Of a DNA stretch of 64,000 bases, positions 14,855 through 50,183 are shown piece by piece. The stretch spans positions 54,785 to 118,784 of the forward strand of contig JAJECN010000015.1 in NCBI GenBank assembly GCA_022821965.1, read 5' to 3'. The notes beneath the pieces were generated by a model, which made no database searches, was not told where the DNA came from, and was given only the letters and a program-made list of their open reading frames with translations. How positions within the stretch are numbered: position 1 is the first letter of the stretch; each line of letters begins with the position of its first letter. Both the position numbers and the translations under genes were made by a program. The stretch comes from Candidatus Poribacteria bacterium. Its GTDB lineage: Bacteria; Poribacteria; WGA-4E; WGA-3G.

Positions 14855-16798
14855 TTACCAACTTAGGTAGACGACGCGAAAATCGAAAATCAATCCCAAA
14901 ATACTAATTATGGATGCGACGATCACATCACCAATAACCAAGCCGATGAAGAACGGGATTGAACGCCGGTATAAGCGGACACCTCCAGTCGAGAGCAATA
15001 TCCGTTTAATGATCCAACTGATTAAGAGCGGAAACCAAAGTCCGGTAAAGGTCCACCAACTTGAAACGACGTATCCAACGGGATGCAGGGGCCACTGAAT
15101 GAATCGCCATCGTAGGAGCAGGAGGCTAACAGCGAAGGTAAATCCGCCAGCGGTATAGAGCATACCGCTAATACTCGTTTCGCTGGGATTATAAAGCCAT
15201 CCCGCGAGTCTGTTGAAAGCGGCGCGAGCATACCACGAGCGCGCCTGCTCTAAACCGACTTGGTAGGAGAGATGCAAGTGTCCCCACGCTGCAGAGAGCG
15301 CACCTACGAAGATAGCAATCGCTAATACCCATAGCAATTGCGTCGGATTGAAGCGGGTTTGATGTGCGAGTTTCAATCCCTCCAGTTGATGCGGCATCGG
15401 GTGTGCACGATACGAGAGATGGTTCAACCAGAAAAAGAGCGACATCACCGAGAGGTTCCGGTTGCCGATACGCCGTGTGCCGAGAGCATCTGTCAAAAGT
15501 AGGTCTGGACCGGCGTTGTAGAGGTCGTGCGCGGGCGGTCCCAGTTCGGCACGGATACGGGTGATTGTCACCGACATCGCGAAATAGAGCGCGAAGAATA
15601 AGGCTGCAAACCAGAGCGACATTCCCGCCTTCAGACAAAACGCCAGAATCAAGATAAATCCGATGAGCGCGCCGATGCCTGCTGTTCTATAACGTAACGC
15701 TTCACCTTCGTCGTTAGTGGGAGGCGCGCGGTTGTTGAAAATCGTCTGCAGCACCACCTTAACATGTGAACGTCCCATCCACAGGGTCCAGAGAAATAGG
15801 GCTATCCAGACCCCTCGAATTTGCGCCATTTCTCGCGGAAATCCGACAGCACCTCGCCAGCCGAACATCTCACCAATGATCCGCTCAAAGTGCCAAAACA
15901 GGTGAAAAAACCAGCAGGAGAACCCCAAATCGAGTGGGATCAGAAAACCCACCCCAATCGCAAACGGAAAGAAACTGATACGGAAACCGGGGTTATTCAT
16001 CGCACTCCACGGCTTTTCACCGAGTCGAAATCCGTGGTAAAGCGGAATTGTAGGGAAAACAGGATCGATTTGGTGTAAACTATAAAGAAGATTCAGGACA
16101 GCAGCGATGCATAAGCCGACGGTCATCATCCGTCTATTGAAAAACAGATGGGACGCAGTTCGTAGGGGGTTTCCTGCATTTGTCGCCGCTCGTGTGATTT
16201 CGTAAGGGAGTTGTGCGATCGGGTAGGTGAGCCGTTCATGTTCTTGCCACTGCTTACGTATAAGCACATTGATGCAGAGCATCGTCACCCCGATGACGAG
16301 GCAGAAACAGACCCAGATTAACGTTGGCAATAGCCACGCTTGTATGTTGGTCTGGAGGTAGAACGTGGATTCGCCTTTGTAGAAACCTTGTAATACCTCC
16401 TGTTTTCCAACGACAAGCCATTCAGGAAGGTGTTGATGAAAGAGTTGTGCCCATTCATTTTCGGTAGTTGCGTACCAAAAACCGTTGCCCATCAATGGCA
16501 CCAAGACTTGTAGCATATCGCGTCCGGCGAAAACGGAGGCTTGGCACAGCATCGCATAGATCGTTAGCAATTCGCTCTGTGTAAACGCCAACGTTGGGTG
16601 CAAGCGGCGTAGTATCACACTGAGTCCGATAAGGACGAGCAGCGTGAACAGGACATTGAACAGCAATGCTAAACTCGTGGGGCGGTTGGAGTCCCATATA
16701 TAACTGAGGTGTAGAACCCAGTAGCTATTAAATGGGATGAGCAGAATTCCAATCAGCGTTGCACGTAGCGTAATAGGGCTTTTTGAAGGGTGTTTCAT
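14855..16798 (-). CDS. large polytopic integral membrane protein of unknown function (647 aa, >12 predicted TM helices)
   Basis: Long ORF made of hydrophobic segments throughout. No catalytic motif recognised. Confidence 0.6.
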   Translation of the reverse strand: MKHPSKSPITLRATLIGILLIPFNSYWVLHLSYIWDSNRPTSLALLFNVLFTLLVLIGLSVILRRLHPTLAFTQSELLTIYAMLCQASVFAGRDMLQVLVPLMGNGFWYATTENEWAQLFHQHLPEWLVVGKQEVLQGFYKGESTFYLQTNIQAWLLPTLIWVCFCLVIGVTMLCINVLIRKQWQEHERLTYPIAQLPYEITRAATNAGNPLRTASHLFFNRRMMTVGLCIAAVLNLLYSLHQIDPVFPTIPLYHGFRLGEKPWSAMNNPGFRISFFPFAIGVGFLIPLDLGFSCWFFHLFWHFERIIGEMFGWRGAVGFPREMAQIRGVWIALFLWTLWMGRSHVKVVLQTIFNNRAPPTNDEGEALRYRTAGIGALIGFILILAFCLKAGMSLWFAALFFALYFAMSVTITRIRAELGPPAHDLYNAGPDLLLTDALGTRRIGNRNLSVMSLFFWLNHLSYRAHPMPHQLEGLKLAHQTRFNPTQLLWVLAIAIFVGALSAAWGHLHLSYQVGLEQARSWYARAAFNRLAGWLYNPSETSISGMLYTAGGFTFAVSLLLLRWRFIQWPLHPVGYVVSSWWTFTGLWFPLLISWIIKRILLSTGGVRLYRRSIPFFIGLVIGDVIVASIISILGLIFDFRVVYLSW

Positions 16799-17090: not shown

Positions 17091-17783
17091 TCAAAGGTCT
17101 TCCTCCGCAGATGTTTCTTCTTGGGCAACTGGTGTTTTGCCTGCCAGATAAAGAAACCATATCGTAAGCGCGATTGCGATGAGAATCCACAAAGCACCCC
17201 AAATTTCAGTCGCTATGCCTGTTACCTCCGATAGCATCCGGGCATCTGAACGGAGACTGGATCTGTCTAAAACATCGCTCTTGATGTCAAGGATCGCGTA
17301 GAGACAACTCGTCACGCCGATAATACGTAACACCCAATCGTTGACAACCTCTGGAAGATAAAAGCCGATGGCGATCAGCGCAACGCCAAAACCGATACCG
17401 AACAGATAGGTAAATGTACTCTCGCCCAAGCCTATGGAGATGGCTACCATACCGACACCGATCAGGATACTAATCGCTTTATCAAAACGTGTTCTCGCTG
17501 CCAGAAGCAGAATGATCCCACCCCACAATAGACTGCCAAGATAGCCCGCTGTTAATGTCCAAAACCGAGAGCCACCTTGTGTGAGCGCGTGTCCCCCTTG
17601 CTGTGGGTTAATCTGAATTTCAAGGATGCGACCTCCCGTTGCGATCGCCGCAAGCCCATGGCTCACCTCATGCATGAACACAACGAAGATTTTGAGTGGA
17701 TATACAAACAGCGTGTTCCATAAAAACCCGATGGCTATGAAGATCAGGAGCAGCGCGATATAACGTTTAAAAATTGATAGCAT
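17091..17783 (-). CDS. membrane-embedded zinc metalloprotease-like protein (HExxH in a TM segment; M50/site-2-protease-like)
   Basis: FVVFMHEVSHGLAAIATGG motif within a hydrophobic helix; about 6 TM helices. Confidence 0.45.
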   Translation of the reverse strand: MLSIFKRYIALLLIFIAIGFLWNTLFVYPLKIFVVFMHEVSHGLAAIATGGRILEIQINPQQGGHALTQGGSRFWTLTAGYLGSLLWGGIILLLAARTRFDKAISILIGVGMVAISIGLGESTFTYLFGIGFGVALIAIGFYLPEVVNDWVLRIIGVTSCLYAILDIKSDVLDRSSLRSDARMLSEVTGIATEIWGALWILIAIALTIWFLYLAGKTPVAQEETSAEEDL

Positions 17784-32877: not shown

Positions 32878-34143
32878 TTACCTGGCTTTCAAGCTTCCCC
32901 AAGTAGTGAAGAGTTTACCAGCAGGTTCGACAGAAACAAATCCACCGGTGTAAACTTCCCATATACCACCAACACCAGCGAACAAGCTCCAACCGCCGCC
33001 ACGTTCGCTGACCTTCACCAACAGGACATTTTTCCCTGCGACAAGGTTAACTTTGAAGTCGTCTTGGAAGTCGCCAGCACCACGGTTGACGGGGTTGTTA
33101 TGGACAACCTCACCGTTGAACCAGACTTTGACAGAGTCATCACTACCGACTTTCGCCGGAACGCCTTCCTGAGCTTCAGGAGCGTCAAGGATGATCAATC
33201 CATAAACCGAGTGGTCGTTGACATCGCCTTCACCCAAACCGAGATCGTTGACGAGATCGTTGACGTTGTTACCGCCGGTTTCAGAAATCTCACCAACTGT
33301 CCATTCCAGATCACCGACAGCATCGCCTGCGCTGGCACCGTTTGCTGCGACCATGTCTTCAGTGACTTCACCACCGCTGGCTTCAGCGAGTGAATCCACA
33401 TCGGTAGAATTTGCGCCACCTTGGTTAGCCTCAGTTGCAGCAATCATCCAGAGCCACGGACCGGTAATTTTCCCAGCGACACCAATAACAGCGGGTCTTA
33501 TGGCAGTTTCCACATCGGCATTAACACCGGCGAACATACTCCAACCACCACCACGCTCACTGACCTTCACGAGTAAGAGGTTATCACCTTGCTTTAGATC
33601 AACCTGAAATGTGTCCTGGAAATCACCAGCACCGCGGTTGACAGCGTTTTTATGAACCACTTCACCGTTGAGCCAGACCTTGACAGAGTCATCACTGCCA
33701 ACTCGCATATCCACGCCGCTCTGATCAGAAGCGGATACAAGCGTGATAAGTCCATAAGACGAGTGGTCGTTGACATCACCTTCGCCTAAGCCGATCTCAT
33801 TGACGAGATCGTTGACGTTGTTGCCGCCGGTTGCAGAAATCTCACCGACCGTCCATACCAAGTCACCCACAGCATCGCCTTCGTTTGCGCCGTTTTCTGC
33901 GACCATGGCTTCAGTGACTTCACCACCGCTGGCTTCAGCGAGTGAATCCACATCAGTAGCAGCCGCGCCACCTTGGCCCGATTCGGTTGGAGCAATCATC
34001 CAAAGCCACGGACCGGTAATTTTGTCTTGGGCGTTAGCGGTCATCGTCATGGCAAAAAGTGCTATAAGACATGCCAACCCCAGTGTGAATAGTTTCCTAT
34101 ACATGAAAATCCTCCAATCAATTTTTTTTACTTTATAAATCAA
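32878..34143 (-). CDS. secreted protein with two tandem PA14-like beta-sandwich repeats and a conserved VEPAGKL..W C-terminal tail
   Basis: Signal peptide followed by an internally duplicated ~190-aa unit (GPWLWMIA...SDDSVKVWLNGEVVH...GGGW). SD GGAGGA. Confidence 0.7.
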   Translation of the reverse strand: MIYKVKKIDWRIFMYRKLFTLGLACLIALFAMTMTANAQDKITGPWLWMIAPTESGQGGAAATDVDSLAEASGGEVTEAMVAENGANEGDAVGDLVWTVGEISATGGNNVNDLVNEIGLGEGDVNDHSSYGLITLVSASDQSGVDMRVGSDDSVKVWLNGEVVHKNAVNRGAGDFQDTFQVDLKQGDNLLLVKVSERGGGWSMFAGVNADVETAIRPAVIGVAGKITGPWLWMIAATEANQGGANSTDVDSLAEASGGEVTEDMVAANGASAGDAVGDLEWTVGEISETGGNNVNDLVNDLGLGEGDVNDHSVYGLIILDAPEAQEGVPAKVGSDDSVKVWFNGEVVHNNPVNRGAGDFQDDFKVNLVAGKNVLLVKVSERGGGWSLFAGVGGIWEVYTGGFVSVEPAGKLFTTWGSLKAR

Positions 34144-34372
34144 ACAAAGTGAAATTAGTGTTGCCCATTCTTGCGGGTCTGATTGCGTCTTAATCAGAAG
34201 ATCACGATCACAATATTGTGTCGGTGTTTATACAGATAGGACAACCTCTTTAGAGTAGTATATAAAATATACCACAATTAAATCAAGCACAAAAAATTTT
34301 GTGCGGTTTTAACCGGTAAAAGCGATTCCGAATTGCGAACCTCGGAACGATAATACCGGTTAAAACACCAAC

Positions 34373-35065
34373 TTAGTAAGAACTTTTAACTTCTGCCCAC
34401 TTCGCCGCTAATTTGCCAGCGGGTTCAACGGGAAATCCTTTGAACTTCAGATTGTAGTCCAAAGCCGCATCGATACCGACAAACATGCTCCAACCGCCGC
34501 CGCGTTCACACACTTTAACCATTAGAACGTTATCGCCTTTTTTCAGGTCTACCTCAAATGTGTCCTGAAAATCGCCAGCACCGCGGTTGACAGGGTTTTT
34601 GTGAACCTCATCACCGTTGAACCATACCTTAACGGAATCATCACTACCGACACGGGCTTCAACGCCTTTCTTCGTAACCTTTGAGTTAGCATTGATCACG
34701 GCGTAGGAGCAATGGTCGTTGATATCGCCCCCGGGACCCAACTTAATCTTTAGGAGTGTGTCGTTGATATTGTTACCACCGACTGCGGCGATTTCTCCCT
34801 CGGTCCATTTGTAATTTTCGGCAAATTTGACCTTCAGGACTTTATCGGTAATCCCTTCTTTGGCAACATCTTCCTCGGTCAGCTTACCTTTTGTTGCGTC
34901 CTTGATGCCGTCGTCATCTGTCACAGCGGCACCACCGCCGCCAGCAGGACTCTCGGTGATCATCCACATCCAAGGTCCTTCAATTTTATCTATGGCAGTC
35001 GCAAATTGTGCTGTAAGAAGGAATCCGATCGCACACACTGCCAAAAGTACATATCTGCTTTTCAT
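34373..35065 (-). CDS. secreted protein with one PA14-like domain and a VEPAGKL..W C-terminal tail
   Basis: Signal peptide. Motifs GPWMWMI and SDDSVKVWFNGDEVH..GGGW. SD AAGGAGG. Confidence 0.7.
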   Translation of the reverse strand: MKSRYVLLAVCAIGFLLTAQFATAIDKIEGPWMWMITESPAGGGGAAVTDDDGIKDATKGKLTEEDVAKEGITDKVLKVKFAENYKWTEGEIAAVGGNNINDTLLKIKLGPGGDINDHCSYAVINANSKVTKKGVEARVGSDDSVKVWFNGDEVHKNPVNRGAGDFQDTFEVDLKKGDNVLMVKVCERGGGWSMFVGIDAALDYNLKFKGFPVEPAGKLAAKWAEVKSSY

Positions 35066-47320: not shown

Positions 47321-48469
47321 TCAATTCACGAACTCACACCATGCAGCAGGAACGCCTACTGGCGCGCCAATTGGCGAAGCTTGGAGTTCTGAGGCATCTA
47401 TGTTCTCCAAACTATCGGTTAATATCGACAGATTGGTATGTGCCTCTGGTAGGTTTTCTGCTTCAATCGCCACTTTGAATTCTACAATTGCGGCATCACG
47501 TTTACCTTGTTGATAGTAGGCAATCCCCAGATTGTTGTGTGCTTCAGCCATCGCACCAGCTGTCCTATGCGCAGCAATAGCCTCTTCAACTTTGCCTTGA
47601 TGGGAGTGAATAATTCCGAGATTCGTGTTTGCCTCTGGGGAATCTGGGGCACTGTGGAGTGCGCCTTCTAAAAGTACCTTTGCTTCATCAAACCTATTTT
47701 GACAGATGTAGACAAAAGCGAGATTGATTTGCACTTCCACTGAATCCGGTGCTATATCGAGTGCTTCTTTGTGCAATGCTATTGCTTCATCATGTTTTCC
47801 CTGCCAACTATAGACCAGTCCAAGGTTTGTATGTGGCTCTTCACCACCGTCGTTATCAATTGAAGTCTTAAACACATCAATAGCACGCTCAAGTTTTCCT
47901 TGAAAAAGATAAACAAGTCCGAGGTTGTTGTGGGGTTCCGCGAGGGTGGGATCGGTTTCCAATGCCTTTTGGTAAAGTTCAATTGCCTCATCAAACCGTC
48001 CTTGCCAACTATAAATCAGTCCAAGATTCAGTTTCGCTTCTCCGCCATCACCGAGTCGAATCGCCTTTTCTGAGGCAGTTATAGCAGCGTCCAGTTTTCC
48101 TTGGGAGATGTAGACGAACCCTAAGTTTGTGTATGCTTCAGCAGAATCTGGGTTGCACTGAAGGGCTGTCTCCAGCGATTGAAGTGCTTCTTTAAGCTGT
48201 CCTTGCCACGCATAAGCGACACCGAGATTAATGTGAGGTGCTGAAAGATTTGGATCAAGGTGACGAGCTTTGAGATGTAAGATGATTGCTTCATCCAACT
48301 CGCCTTCCCAACAACGCAAAGCACCCAAATTGGTGTGTGGTGCTGCCAGATCGGGTGCAAGACGAATTGCTTTATTTAGGGCAACTTTTGCTTCCTCAAG
48401 CCTTCCATGATCGATATCGTCATACGCCTGACGATTTAGTTCTCGTGCACGCTCAATATGCTCAGTCAT
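47321..48469 (-). CDS. TPR-repeat protein
   Basis: About 10 TPR units (AxxNLG..Y..QGK..EAI). Start at MTEHIE, with SD AAGGAA. Confidence 0.75.
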   Translation of the reverse strand: MTEHIERARELNRQAYDDIDHGRLEEAKVALNKAIRLAPDLAAPHTNLGALRCWEGELDEAIILHLKARHLDPNLSAPHINLGVAYAWQGQLKEALQSLETALQCNPDSAEAYTNLGFVYISQGKLDAAITASEKAIRLGDGGEAKLNLGLIYSWQGRFDEAIELYQKALETDPTLAEPHNNLGLVYLFQGKLERAIDVFKTSIDNDGGEEPHTNLGLVYSWQGKHDEAIALHKEALDIAPDSVEVQINLAFVYICQNRFDEAKVLLEGALHSAPDSPEANTNLGIIHSHQGKVEEAIAAHRTAGAMAEAHNNLGIAYYQQGKRDAAIVEFKVAIEAENLPEAHTNLSILTDSLENIDASELQASPIGAPVGVPAAWCEFVN

Positions 48470-48553
48470 GCTGTTTTCCTTACAGCAACCATCTACAAAA
48501 TGAATGCAGCCAGTCATTCGGGTAACGCACCGGCTGCACTCAGTTTATCTTGT

Positions 48554-49336
48554 CTATTGCCCGGATTTGATGCTTGCCCATGTAGTGGCAAGTTTGGCAG
48601 AAGGCTCAACGGGCAGTAGTGTTACGAGTCCTTTATCCATCAAATCCTTTATATCCTCTGCTTCCAGTACGGAAGCGAAAATTGCGACCTCATAAAGCAT
48701 GCCATCAAGTGTTTCTGAAGTGTTGTTGGTCCAACCACCGATATTAACATCAGTGTCATTCTGGGGACCCGGTTTACCCATCCCACCAACAGAACCAATT
48801 TCCTCAGCATTTTCGTAGATTTTGATGGTGTCCTTTGCGTCGTAAGTTGCGGTCATGTACAACCAAACATCCTTCTTGACGTTTCCTTGATTCCAAGCCC
48901 CTTTCCAACCGTCTCGCGCGAAATAGGCTTCCCAGCCGGTGCCGTTGCCGCTTGTCCTAAAGGCGTAATTTGCCACTGTTCCATTCGCAGGTCTTTTGCC
49001 GAGAATATGCCCAAAACCGTTCTCGGATTTGTTGACGTACACCCATGAAGTAATTGACCACGCCTTTTCCAGGTACATACTCTTGGAGTCCGGGATAATA
49101 ACCCGATCATTCTGCCCGTTTAAACTTAGAGCAGGTCCATCCGGCCCTTTGATCCATTTTCCGCCCTGAAGTTCACCGTGGTTGTCGTTCCCAGAAATAT
49201 CCTCGATTTTATCGCCTTTACCTTCGTCGAGTAACCAAATACCCCTTGCGGTTTCAAAGTCGATCTCCGCATAGGTTTGTACCGCGAAGGGCAGACTGAT
49301 GGCGATAATCGCTAAGCAAACTATAATGGATTTCAT
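48554..49336 (-). CDS. secreted LamG-like (concanavalin A-like lectin/glucanase) protein with VEPSAKLATTW C-terminal tail
   Basis: Signal peptide. Motif ALSLNGQNDRVIIPDS. Tandem paralog of the next gene, with an identical 5' UTR. Confidence 0.7.
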   Translation of the reverse strand: MKSIIVCLAIIAISLPFAVQTYAEIDFETARGIWLLDEGKGDKIEDISGNDNHGELQGGKWIKGPDGPALSLNGQNDRVIIPDSKSMYLEKAWSITSWVYVNKSENGFGHILGKRPANGTVANYAFRTSGNGTGWEAYFARDGWKGAWNQGNVKKDVWLYMTATYDAKDTIKIYENAEEIGSVGGMGKPGPQNDTDVNIGGWTNNTSETLDGMLYEVAIFASVLEAEDIKDLMDKGLVTLLPVEPSAKLATTWASIKSGQ

Positions 49337-49400: not shown

Positions 49401-50183
49401 TTATTGAGATTTGATATCTGCCCATTTAGTTGCGAGTTTGCCGGAAGGTTCAACGGCAGTGAGCAGGGATGGTATCCCATCCTCCATCAGATCGTTTATG
49501 TCTGCTTCTGCCAGCGCGACATCGAAAAGCGCGACCTCATAAAGCATACCGTCAAGTGTCTCTGAAGTGTTGTCTGTCCAACCGCCAATGTTGACATCCG
49601 TATCATTCCGAGGTGCCGGTCCACCCATCCCACTAACAGAACCGATTTCAGCTCCATTTTCGTAGATCTTGATGGTATCTTCTCCATCATAGGTTGCGGT
49701 CATGTACAACCAGACATCTTTCTTGACGCTTCCTTGATTCCAAGCACCTTTCCAACCGCCTCGCGAATAGTATGCTTCCCAGCCGGTGCCATTGCCGCTT
49801 GTCCTGAATGCGTAATTCGCCACCGTTCCAGATGCCGGTCTTTTGCCGAGAATATGTCCAAAACCGTTCTCGGTTGGATTCACAAAAGTCCATGCAGTGA
49901 TCGTCCACGCTTTCTCCAGATACAGGCTGTCGGAGTCGGCAATGATAACCCGATCATTTTGTCCATTTAAACTTAGGGCAGGACCACTTGGACCTTCGAC
50001 CCATTCTCCGCCTTGAAGTTCACCGTGATTTTCGTTGCCGGACATATCGGTGATAACATTGCCTTCACCTTCGTCGAGTAGCCAAATTCCCCTTGCTGTT
50101 CCAAGGTCAATCTCCGCATAAGTATGTACTGTGAAGGTCAGACTGATGGCAACGATCGCTAAACAAGCTATAATGGATTTCAT
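49401..50183 (-). CDS. secreted LamG-like protein with VEPSGKLATKW C-terminal tail
   Basis: About 75% aa identity to the 48554 gene, with the same 5' UTR and SD. Confidence 0.7.
   Translation of the reverse strand: MKSIIACLAIVAISLTFTVHTYAEIDLGTARGIWLLDEGEGNVITDMSGNENHGELQGGEWVEGPSGPALSLNGQNDRVIIADSDSLYLEKAWTITAWTFVNPTENGFGHILGKRPASGTVANYAFRTSGNGTGWEAYYSRGGWKGAWNQGSVKKDVWLYMTATYDGEDTIKIYENGAEIGSVSGMGGPAPRNDTDVNIGGWTDNTSETLDGMLYEVALFDVALAEADINDLMEDGIPSLLTAVEPSGKLATKWADIKSQ

Follow-up and report, generated by a model that had tools for sequence, protein, structure and literature searches.

Why should secreted proteins that are built on unlike domains end in one and the same short sequence? The question is raised by a 64,000-nucleotide stretch of Candidatus Poribacteria DNA (assembly GCA_022821965.1, contig JAJECN010000015.1, positions 54,785 to 118,784; 47.6% GC), referred to here as the window, in which two PA14-like genes and two LamG genes encode proteins that finish with a conserved tail of about 18 residues. 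The answer that we favor, with moderate confidence, is that this tail serves as a C-terminal tag for sorting or anchoring, modular and specific to the phylum, devoid of a transmembrane (TM) segment and read in trans, which is carried by Sec-exported, non-catalytic modules that bind glycans or other ligands.

The motif VEPxxKLxxxWxx[ILV]K is found four times in the six-frame translation of the window, each time 2-3 residues before a stop codon, and the back-translated DNA pattern of the tail is matched three times, against 0.00 matches expected from shuffled sequence; the density of tails in the window is 6 per 100 kb. A preliminary description of this DNA had held that the four genes end in the same motif and that their domains differ, and both statements stand. 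The LamG proteins match Laminin_G_3 (PF13385) over model positions 1-151 of 151, with 69.5 bits (48554-49336) and 69.2 bits (49401-50183) against a gathering cutoff of 27.6; they are tandem paralogues with 78% identity. The bodies of the other two proteins (genes 32878-34143 and 34373-35065) have the PA14 beta-sandwich fold; PA14 (PF07691) falls short of its gathering score in the 421-residue protein (16 bits, cutoff 24) and has no Pfam match in the 230-residue protein. Between the 230-residue protein and the LamG protein, BLASTP aligns nothing but the signal peptide and, with an E of 3e-5, the 18 residues of the tail; profile-profile comparison of the PA14-like and LamG proteins aligns the signal peptide alone. 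The signal peptides of these unrelated carriers (34373-35065 and 48554-49336) are indeed alike, both beginning MKS (BLAST E 0.003; hhalign probability 94%), which may be just a matter of common signal-peptide composition.

An internal duplication had also been ascribed to the PA14-like proteins, and in the longer of them it is readily confirmed: residues 41-224 and 225-421 are 79% identical over 167 aligned residues, and 80.5% identical as nucleotides. For these two domains there is a single tail, located after the second copy only. The true start of this gene is likely the ATG at 34104, after which comes a typical signal peptide, and orthologues of its product exist in other Poribacteria (for example, L021:4354-5613).

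The preliminary description had itself considered that the motif might be nothing else than the last beta-strand of a small C-terminal domain common to all four proteins. The Laminin_G_3 model stops 10 residues short of the tail; in the AlphaFold model of the 230-residue protein the predicted local distance difference test score (pLDDT) exceeds 90 in the body and is ~50 in residues 211-230, which are undocked and form a low-confidence helix at residues 217-229. That Pfam boundary, the single tail serving two domains and the limitation of shared sequence to 18 residues establish that there is no shared C-terminal domain. The notion that the tail is the final structural element of its various carrier domains draws on a strand placed at residues 250-256 of the AlphaFold model of a LamG protein (32 close homologues, mean pLDDT 53), but the tail region of that model has a pLDDT of 32-38, and the model is too poor for any statement about its tail; in the good model of the 230-residue protein the tail is undocked, a two-domain protein makes do with one tail, and tails are found on jelly rolls, beta-sandwiches and beta-propellers alike. 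A reading of the tail as part of the fold is thus essentially excluded. Its companion, a DNA cassette without a function of its own that has spread recently, fares no better: the invariant positions use all of their synonymous codons (4 for Val, 4 for Pro, 6 for Leu and 4 for Thr), so that conservation operates at the level of the peptide and recent copying of DNA is excluded. Between them, these two explanations retain next to no probability. The tag is a modular, exposed and strictly C-terminal peptide under selection at the peptide level.

The consensus of the tag, some positions of which are imposed by the search pattern, reads [L/T/F]-[A/P]-V(98%)-E(81%)-P(90%)-x-G/D/N-K-L(97%)-A/T/S-T(88%)-T(65%)-W-G/A(94%)-x-L/I/V-K. 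Its constant part is the core GKLxTTWGxIK, with an invariant Trp and an invariant Lys at either end. Past the last conserved Lys come 1-4 residues that are rich in R, K, S and T and are mostly basic or polar; R is the commonest among them (122 of ~600 residues), and the final position is most often taken by R or K. The absence of a TM segment, asserted in the preliminary description, is borne out by hydropathy: the maximal Kyte-Doolittle 15-residue window in the last 30 residues averages 0.34 and never exceeds 1.47, as compared with 2.36 in the N-terminal signal peptides, and the core 10-mer, which has ~3 hydrophobic side chains, has a mean hydropathy of -0.32. The suggested amphipathic strand receives a divided answer. 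The hydrophobic moment peaks at the strand-like angle of 155-160 degrees (0.48 versus 0.28 for shuffled sequence at 160 degrees; the value at 100 degrees is slightly raised), but the good AlphaFold model puts a low-confidence helix there. No match to the tail was found among the Pfam and NCBIfam models, with the tail either embedded in its protein or isolated (the latter at E<=10), nothing significant emerged when a profile of the tail was compared with the PDB, and no description of the motif was found in the literature on the motif strings and on Poribacteria sorting signals.

A wider search for the motif, also proposed in the preliminary description, extends the finding well beyond the window. 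The DNA pattern V-E-P-x-x-K-L-x-T-x-W-x-x-Φ-K (Φ, hydrophobic) was scanned over 185,579 species-representative genomes comprising 596 Gb, in which ~4 chance matches are estimated. It identified at least 120 loci from 85 assemblies; of those listed, 115 bear the name Poribacteria, the other 5 being metagenome-assembled genomes without a name. In the 120 Poribacteria loci listed, a relaxed core is matched 190 times, and 183 of these matches lie within 12 residues of a stop codon, most frequently at 3. A tail profile built from four sequences and run against 1.84 billion representative proteins produced 108 matches (50% identity clusters) at E<=1e-3, ~105 of which are genuine C-terminal tails. 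Protein P0310 (1590 residues) is a false positive, with a repeated REPSGKLGHRW propeller motif. The named homologues of the 230-residue and LamG proteins keep the tail, and all of them come from Candidatus Poribacteria except one fragment that is recorded as belonging to the sponge Geodia barretti. Within the loci listed in the genome scan and in every named relative, the tag is found in Poribacteria only. A search outside the phylum, by way of the VSP and VYP variants and of metagenome loci centered on the membrane protein DUF6785 (discussed below), encountered only relatives named Poribacteria apart from a single 2-kb contig binned as Nitrosomonadaceae, probably in error. Tailed proteins are likewise encoded by contigs from lakes or fresh water, groundwater and hot springs that were recovered independently with the DUF6785 query, and those of their relatives that have names are Poribacteria; the tag is therefore phylum-wide rather than specific to sponges.

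Short queries have their own peculiarities. A 44-residue tail alignment run against a 5.8-billion protein index yielded only fragments of 30-77 residues, apparently length-matched candidates, and two more Poribacteria names. Many "genes" of 40-100 codons (P0322, P0363, P0245, P0247 and P0255), some of them on Mb-scale contigs, consist of little beyond the tail, or of the tail and read-through; frameshift pseudogenization, or else indel errors in long-read assemblies, probably produced them, and they inflate the lists returned by short-profile searches. LamG-tail genes also appear on three IMG/VR "viral" contigs (L121:12755-13696; L122; L123:438-1232), one of them 78.7 kb in length, and may be cargo borne by prophages or misclassified Poribacteria DNA.

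What does the tag ride on? After removal of the tail, 187 tailed open reading frames (ORFs) from the loci of the genome scan fall into 37 BLAST clusters. Pfam analysis of cluster representatives and of 150 full-length members assigns Laminin_G_3 to 83 of the 150 and no family to many; the other assignments are to 3keto-disac_hyd, CBM9_1, NPCBM, CBM_4_9, F5/8 type C (discoidin), PD40, Kelch and DUF3108-like domains, for a total of at least 9 Pfam families and three or more folds. In the same set there is no catalytic domain. The median length of full-length members is 262 residues; an N-terminal hydrophobic signal region is present in 151 of 159 (95%) and a lipobox-like motif in 12. (A targeting peptide for bacterial microcompartments or encapsulins is ruled out by the signal peptides of these 95%.) Tail genes occur in tandem, two or more together, at 46 of 104 loci, and in one array all six of the complete LamG genes have the tail or a near variant. 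Tail density is 6 per 100 kb in the window and, at distances of 4-10 kb from DUF6785 genes, 2.7 per 100 kb; extrapolation from these values to a genome of 5-6 Mb, rather than a count, suggests on the order of 10^2 carriers per genome.

The preliminary description had likened the tail, in its logic, to PEP-CTERM and to the C-terminal domains (CTDs) of type IX secretion (T9SS). The analogy holds, and the tail belongs to neither class. It shares with PEP-CTERM, the exosortase signal (TIGR02595), its occurrence at the C-terminus of numerous unrelated proteins exported by Sec, as a brief tag that is confined to certain lineages and is present at high copy per genome. The VEP of the tail, an acidic-Pro motif that follows a hydrophobic residue, is comparable with the PEP of its counterpart, and the very end of the tail is basic, although its basic cluster has only 1-4 residues. 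It differs in that PEP-CTERM has a TM helix of ~20 residues between motif and basic cluster, whereas the Poribacteria tail has ~12 mostly polar residues there; the first Pro, moreover, is replaced by Val in 98% of tails, and the E gives way to S, D or Y within genomes. Lacking a TM helix, the tail is not amenable to the inner-membrane exosortase mechanism as such. NCBIfam scans of the four proteins (E<=1) and of five isolated tails (E<=10) matched no sorting-signal model, TIGR02595 included, and no exosortase (EpsH family) turned up in the window or in ~2 Mb of loci, of which no hidden Markov model (HMM) scan of all ORFs was made.

The type A CTD of the T9SS (TIGR04183 / PF18962) resembles the tail in following upon a Sec signal peptide as a C-terminal signal that is read in the envelope, and its cargo is often displayed at the surface. 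The CTD cannot dispense with conserved lysines near its C-terminus, and for the secretion of GFP the final 22 residues of HBP35 are enough (PMC10202324); CTD-like matches have been reported in Poribacteria, in which none of the T9SS core genes (PorK/L/M/N, Sov, PorV, PorU) were found (Kamke et al. 2014; PMC3909097). The CTD is, in contrast, a folded 7-strand Ig-like domain of ~70-100 residues, whereas the tag has ~18 residues and is unfolded in the model, and neither TIGR04183 nor PF18962 matches the four proteins or, even with a threshold of E<=10, the isolated tails. A degenerate T9SS CTD or PEP-CTERM was considered and rejected: the tail lacks a fold and a TM segment, and it shows no similarity by HMM.

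Other short C-terminal peptides are recognized in different settings: the S-domain of secretins is bound by pilotins, MinD and PBP5 have membrane-targeting helices, and PTS1-type peptides are bound by TPR receptors. As generally understood, these peptides are like the tail in having 10-20 residues, being disordered until bound, lying at the extreme C-terminus and conferring localization. They differ in that each serves a single protein family or is cytoplasmic, and the PDB profile search found no similarity of sequence; we know of none that is common to dozens of unrelated periplasmic or secreted families. Dockerins, which bind cohesins, likewise provide many secreted, glycan-related proteins with a common C-terminal module and generate a combinatorial repertoire at the surface, but they are folded Ca-binding domains of ~70 residues that are mostly attached to enzymes, whereas the tag is an 18-residue peptide on non-catalytic modules only and has no known cohesin-like receptor. 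The tag is best described as a new class, apparently undescribed, within the general kind of C-terminal sorting or anchoring tags.

A strictly C-terminal peptide that is conserved as a peptide, restricted to one lineage, present in high copy and attached to Sec-exported proteins is most economically read as a signal for sorting, anchoring or secretion, as the preliminary description had proposed; the in silico results support that interpretation. In the scheme that we envisage, the N-terminal signal peptide, recognized as a feature of the sequence, would carry the protein over the inner membrane, and the folded binding domain would leave the final ~20 residues exposed and unstructured, as they are in the AlphaFold model. 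One common component of the envelope would then recognize the exposed peptide in trans, including its nearness to the free C-terminus, and would sort, retain or attach the module; the most likely location is the cell surface or the outer envelope, on it or within it. The outcome for the cell would be a large and exchangeable repertoire of lectin-like modules. The tag might be cleaved at or near VEP in the manner of a sortase substrate or might be retained non-covalently. That small and polar residues are conserved, and that the C-terminus lies at a fixed distance, points to a protein as reader rather than to generic binding of lipid.

Certain facts weigh against this sorting or anchoring scheme. 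Co-occurrence with a specific secretion or processing system, for which the preliminary description had proposed a test, was not observed: in the tail-gene neighborhoods that were examined there is no dedicated secretion operon, none resembling that of a sortase, and no recognition machinery was found. A short linker of 5-8 residues joins the tag to its binding module, and surface tethers are not usually so short. Within single genomes the E of VEP gives way to other residues (VSP, VYP, VDP), which rules out a strict site of cleavage in this part. The conformation of the tail differs by source, a low-confidence helix in the 230-residue model, a low-confidence strand in the poor LamG model and a strand-like moment, and its restriction to Poribacteria is founded on the at least 120 loci, as listed, and on named relatives, with absence elsewhere not proven.

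Among the explanations that compete with a sorting or anchoring tag is docking. The tail would plug its module non-covalently into a partner, for instance a transporter in the membrane or a scaffold such as DUF6785/DUF6784, or pairs of CRTAC1-like and TPR proteins, and the modules would act as detachable substrate-binding subunits or in a dockerin-type assembly, instead of being sorted. The DUF6785 + DUF6784 protein (640 residues, polytopic; Pfam E 3e-139), which has several ~35%-identical paralogues in Poribacteria, does lie close to tail genes at more than the expected frequency. Of 80 loci picked solely for a DUF6785 homologue, 24 carry tail genes. The density of tails is 9 per 100 kb where the DUF6785 gene is no more than 2 kb away, versus 2.7 per 100 kb at distances of 4-10 kb; the nearer zone contains 21 of the 36 tail genes in these loci (binomial p 0.0026, with no correction for tandem arrays), and at several loci a tail gene on the same strand precedes the DUF6785 gene by 15-220 nucleotides. 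Gene pairs for CRTAC1-like (FG-GAP + UnbV_ASPIC) and TPR proteins also recur next to tail genes of different families. Yet the enrichment around DUF6785 is only ~3-fold and is inflated by tandem arrays, the homologue in the window has no tail gene beside it, and the neighbor families have many paralogues in Poribacteria, which makes chance adjacency frequent. DUF6785 adjoins LamG-tail genes in 6 of the 120 tail-centered loci listed, as well as in L125, and it lacks a structure, an NCBIfam model and a description in the literature. Docking is, on balance, unlikely, and DUF6785/DUF6784 is a weak candidate for the reader of the tag, a lead and not a finding.

That the tail requires no protein receptor, and is a cationic, Trp-containing amphipathic peptide that anchors itself in membrane or lipopolysaccharide like the C-terminal peptides of MinD or PBP5, would account for its net basic charge (the Lys at both ends of the core, the R/K-rich extreme end), its invariant Trp, its amphipathic moment and the short helix that AlphaFold suggests. 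It leaves unaccounted for the high conservation of polar and small residues (V 98%, P 90%, T 88%, G/A 94%), which lipid binding does not need and which is atypical of membrane-targeting helices; the hydrophobic side chains of the core are few for such a role, and the constant spacing from the C-terminus suggests a protein reader, all of which makes self-sufficient anchoring rather improbable. A C-terminal propeptide or degron, acted upon by a periplasmic protease of the Prc/CtpA type and setting the activation or half-life of lectin-like modules, would likewise be strictly C-terminal and unstructured, as ssrA-type and Prc substrates are. The final residues, however, which such proteases read, are the least conserved of the tail (R, K, Q, Y, F, D and others), with the conserved core set 2-5 residues inside, and a degron common to ~10^2 unrelated proteins per genome is hard to explain; we hold this to be very improbable.

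The genomic signature of a sorting or anchoring tag is a familiar one. From each of the LPXTG, PEP-CTERM, T9SS CTD and GlyGly-CTERM tags the way led to a dedicated machine of the envelope, and the Poribacteria tag has the same signature; because neither the TM helix nor the folded domain of the known classes is present in it, its reader is probably something new. Poribacteria are an uncultivated phylum that is dominant in sponge microbiomes. It is conceivable, and we suggest tentatively, that they possess an unrecognized sorting or anchoring system in which a VEPxGKLATTWGxIK tag of ~18 residues on ~100 or more lectin-like cargo proteins per genome is served by machinery that is unrelated to exosortase, sortase and T9SS, possibly DUF6785/DUF6784, and that builds a glycan-binding surface. 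If so, it is through this surface that sponge symbionts and their free-living relatives would meet the polysaccharides of host and environment. The searchable motif provides a handle for defining the surface or secreted "lectinome" of Poribacteria, turns the display of host- and polysaccharide-binding proteins by symbionts into a testable question, and serves as a near-diagnostic marker of Poribacteria contigs in metagenomes.

Table 1. Positions of the tagged genes, their parts and the DUF6785 homologues (window coordinates unless a locus is named)
Feature	Coordinates	Strand	Sequence or remarks
Tandem PA14-like gene with C-terminal tag	32878..34143	-	ORF; 421 aa from TTG; secreted (signal peptide by sequence)
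Signal peptide of 32878-34143 protein (ATG 34104 start)		-	MYRKLFTLGLACLIALFAMTMTANA
First PA14-like repeat, residues 41-224	33472..34023	-	followed by linker, no tail
Second PA14-like repeat, residues 225-404	32932..33471	-	internal duplication
C-terminal tag, gene 32878-34143	32881..32931	-	VEPAGKLFTTWGSLKAR
Protein end, gene 32878-34143			SVEPAGKLFTTWGSLKAR
Single-domain PA14-like secreted protein with tag	34373..35065	-	230 aa
Signal peptide of 230-aa protein	34994..35065	-	MKSRYVLLAVCAIGFLLTAQFATA; from sequence; AlphaFold helix at residues 2-19
C-terminal tag, gene 34373-35065	34376..34429	-	VEPAGKLAAKWAEVKSSY; pLDDT ~50, low-confidence helix at residues 217-229
Protein end, gene 34373-35065			PVEPAGKLAAKWAEVKSSY
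LamG secreted protein with tag	48554..49336	-	260 aa; Pfam Laminin_G_3 E 4.4e-19, residues 73-230
C-terminal tag, gene 48554-49336	48557..48610	-	VEPSAKLATTWASIKSGQ
Protein end, gene 48554-49336			PVEPSAKLATTWASIKSGQ
LamG secreted protein with tag	49401..50183	-	260 aa; Pfam Laminin_G_3 E 5.5e-19
C-terminal tag, gene 49401-50183	49404..49454	-	VEPSGKLATKWADIKSQ
Protein end, gene 49401-50183			AVEPSGKLATKWADIKSQ
DUF6785 homologue of the window	14855..16798	-	
DUF6785 homologues of other loci	L044:3670-5586; L125:15900-17831; L128-L207		

Tail-free families that recur near tail genes comprise secreted TPR proteins (17 loci), CRTAC1-like FG-GAP + UnbV_ASPIC proteins (16), FGE-fold lipoproteins (15), GFO/IDH/MocA (15), PhyH (13), WD40 (7) and the DUF6785 + DUF6784 membrane protein (6); several of them are simply expanded in Poribacteria. 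A group consisting of a CRTAC1-like gene and a gene for a secreted TPR protein stands beside tail genes of varied families (L010:870-5927; L110; L038; L064; L017; L034; L065) and often includes a lipoprotein with the FGE-sulfatase fold, 3-107 nucleotides from the tail gene. An identification of these neighboring lipoproteins with PorK/GldK was rejected: they score 95-158 bits against a cutoff of 350, EgtB, SenA and PvdO match equally well, and the resemblance extends no further than the generic FGE fold.

The most consistent pairing of tail and DUF6785 is provided by a tailed family of ~217 residues that has no Pfam match and has WDFNxxxQxxDWK in its N-terminal region (L162:9342-9983, L164:68-724, L198:4785-5435 and L199:2364-3014). 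Its genes lie directly beside DUF6785, at 15 nucleotides on the same strand in L162 and at 264 nucleotides on opposite strands in L198 and L199; in L164 a LamG-tail gene is interposed between the two. In the window, the gene immediately upstream of DUF6785 (17091-17783, minus strand) encodes a 230-residue multi-pass membrane protein without an NCBIfam match, the HEVSHG motif of which looks, by eye, like the signature of an M50B-like metalloprotease.

Downstream of the LamG pair, the segment 42546-48517 (minus strand) encodes a 398-residue TPR protein, a sulfatase, a 312-residue ankyrin-repeat protein and an enzyme of the GH95 fucosidase type. The TPR protein has no signal peptide, and the sulfatase ORF, as read, has no obvious one. 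A role of this TPR protein (47321-48517) as a periplasmic receptor of the tail was rejected for want of a signal peptide, TPR genes being common in these genomes. The content of the segment is a typical sponge-symbiont mixture of "eukaryote-like" repeat proteins with genes for the degradation of sulfated glycans.

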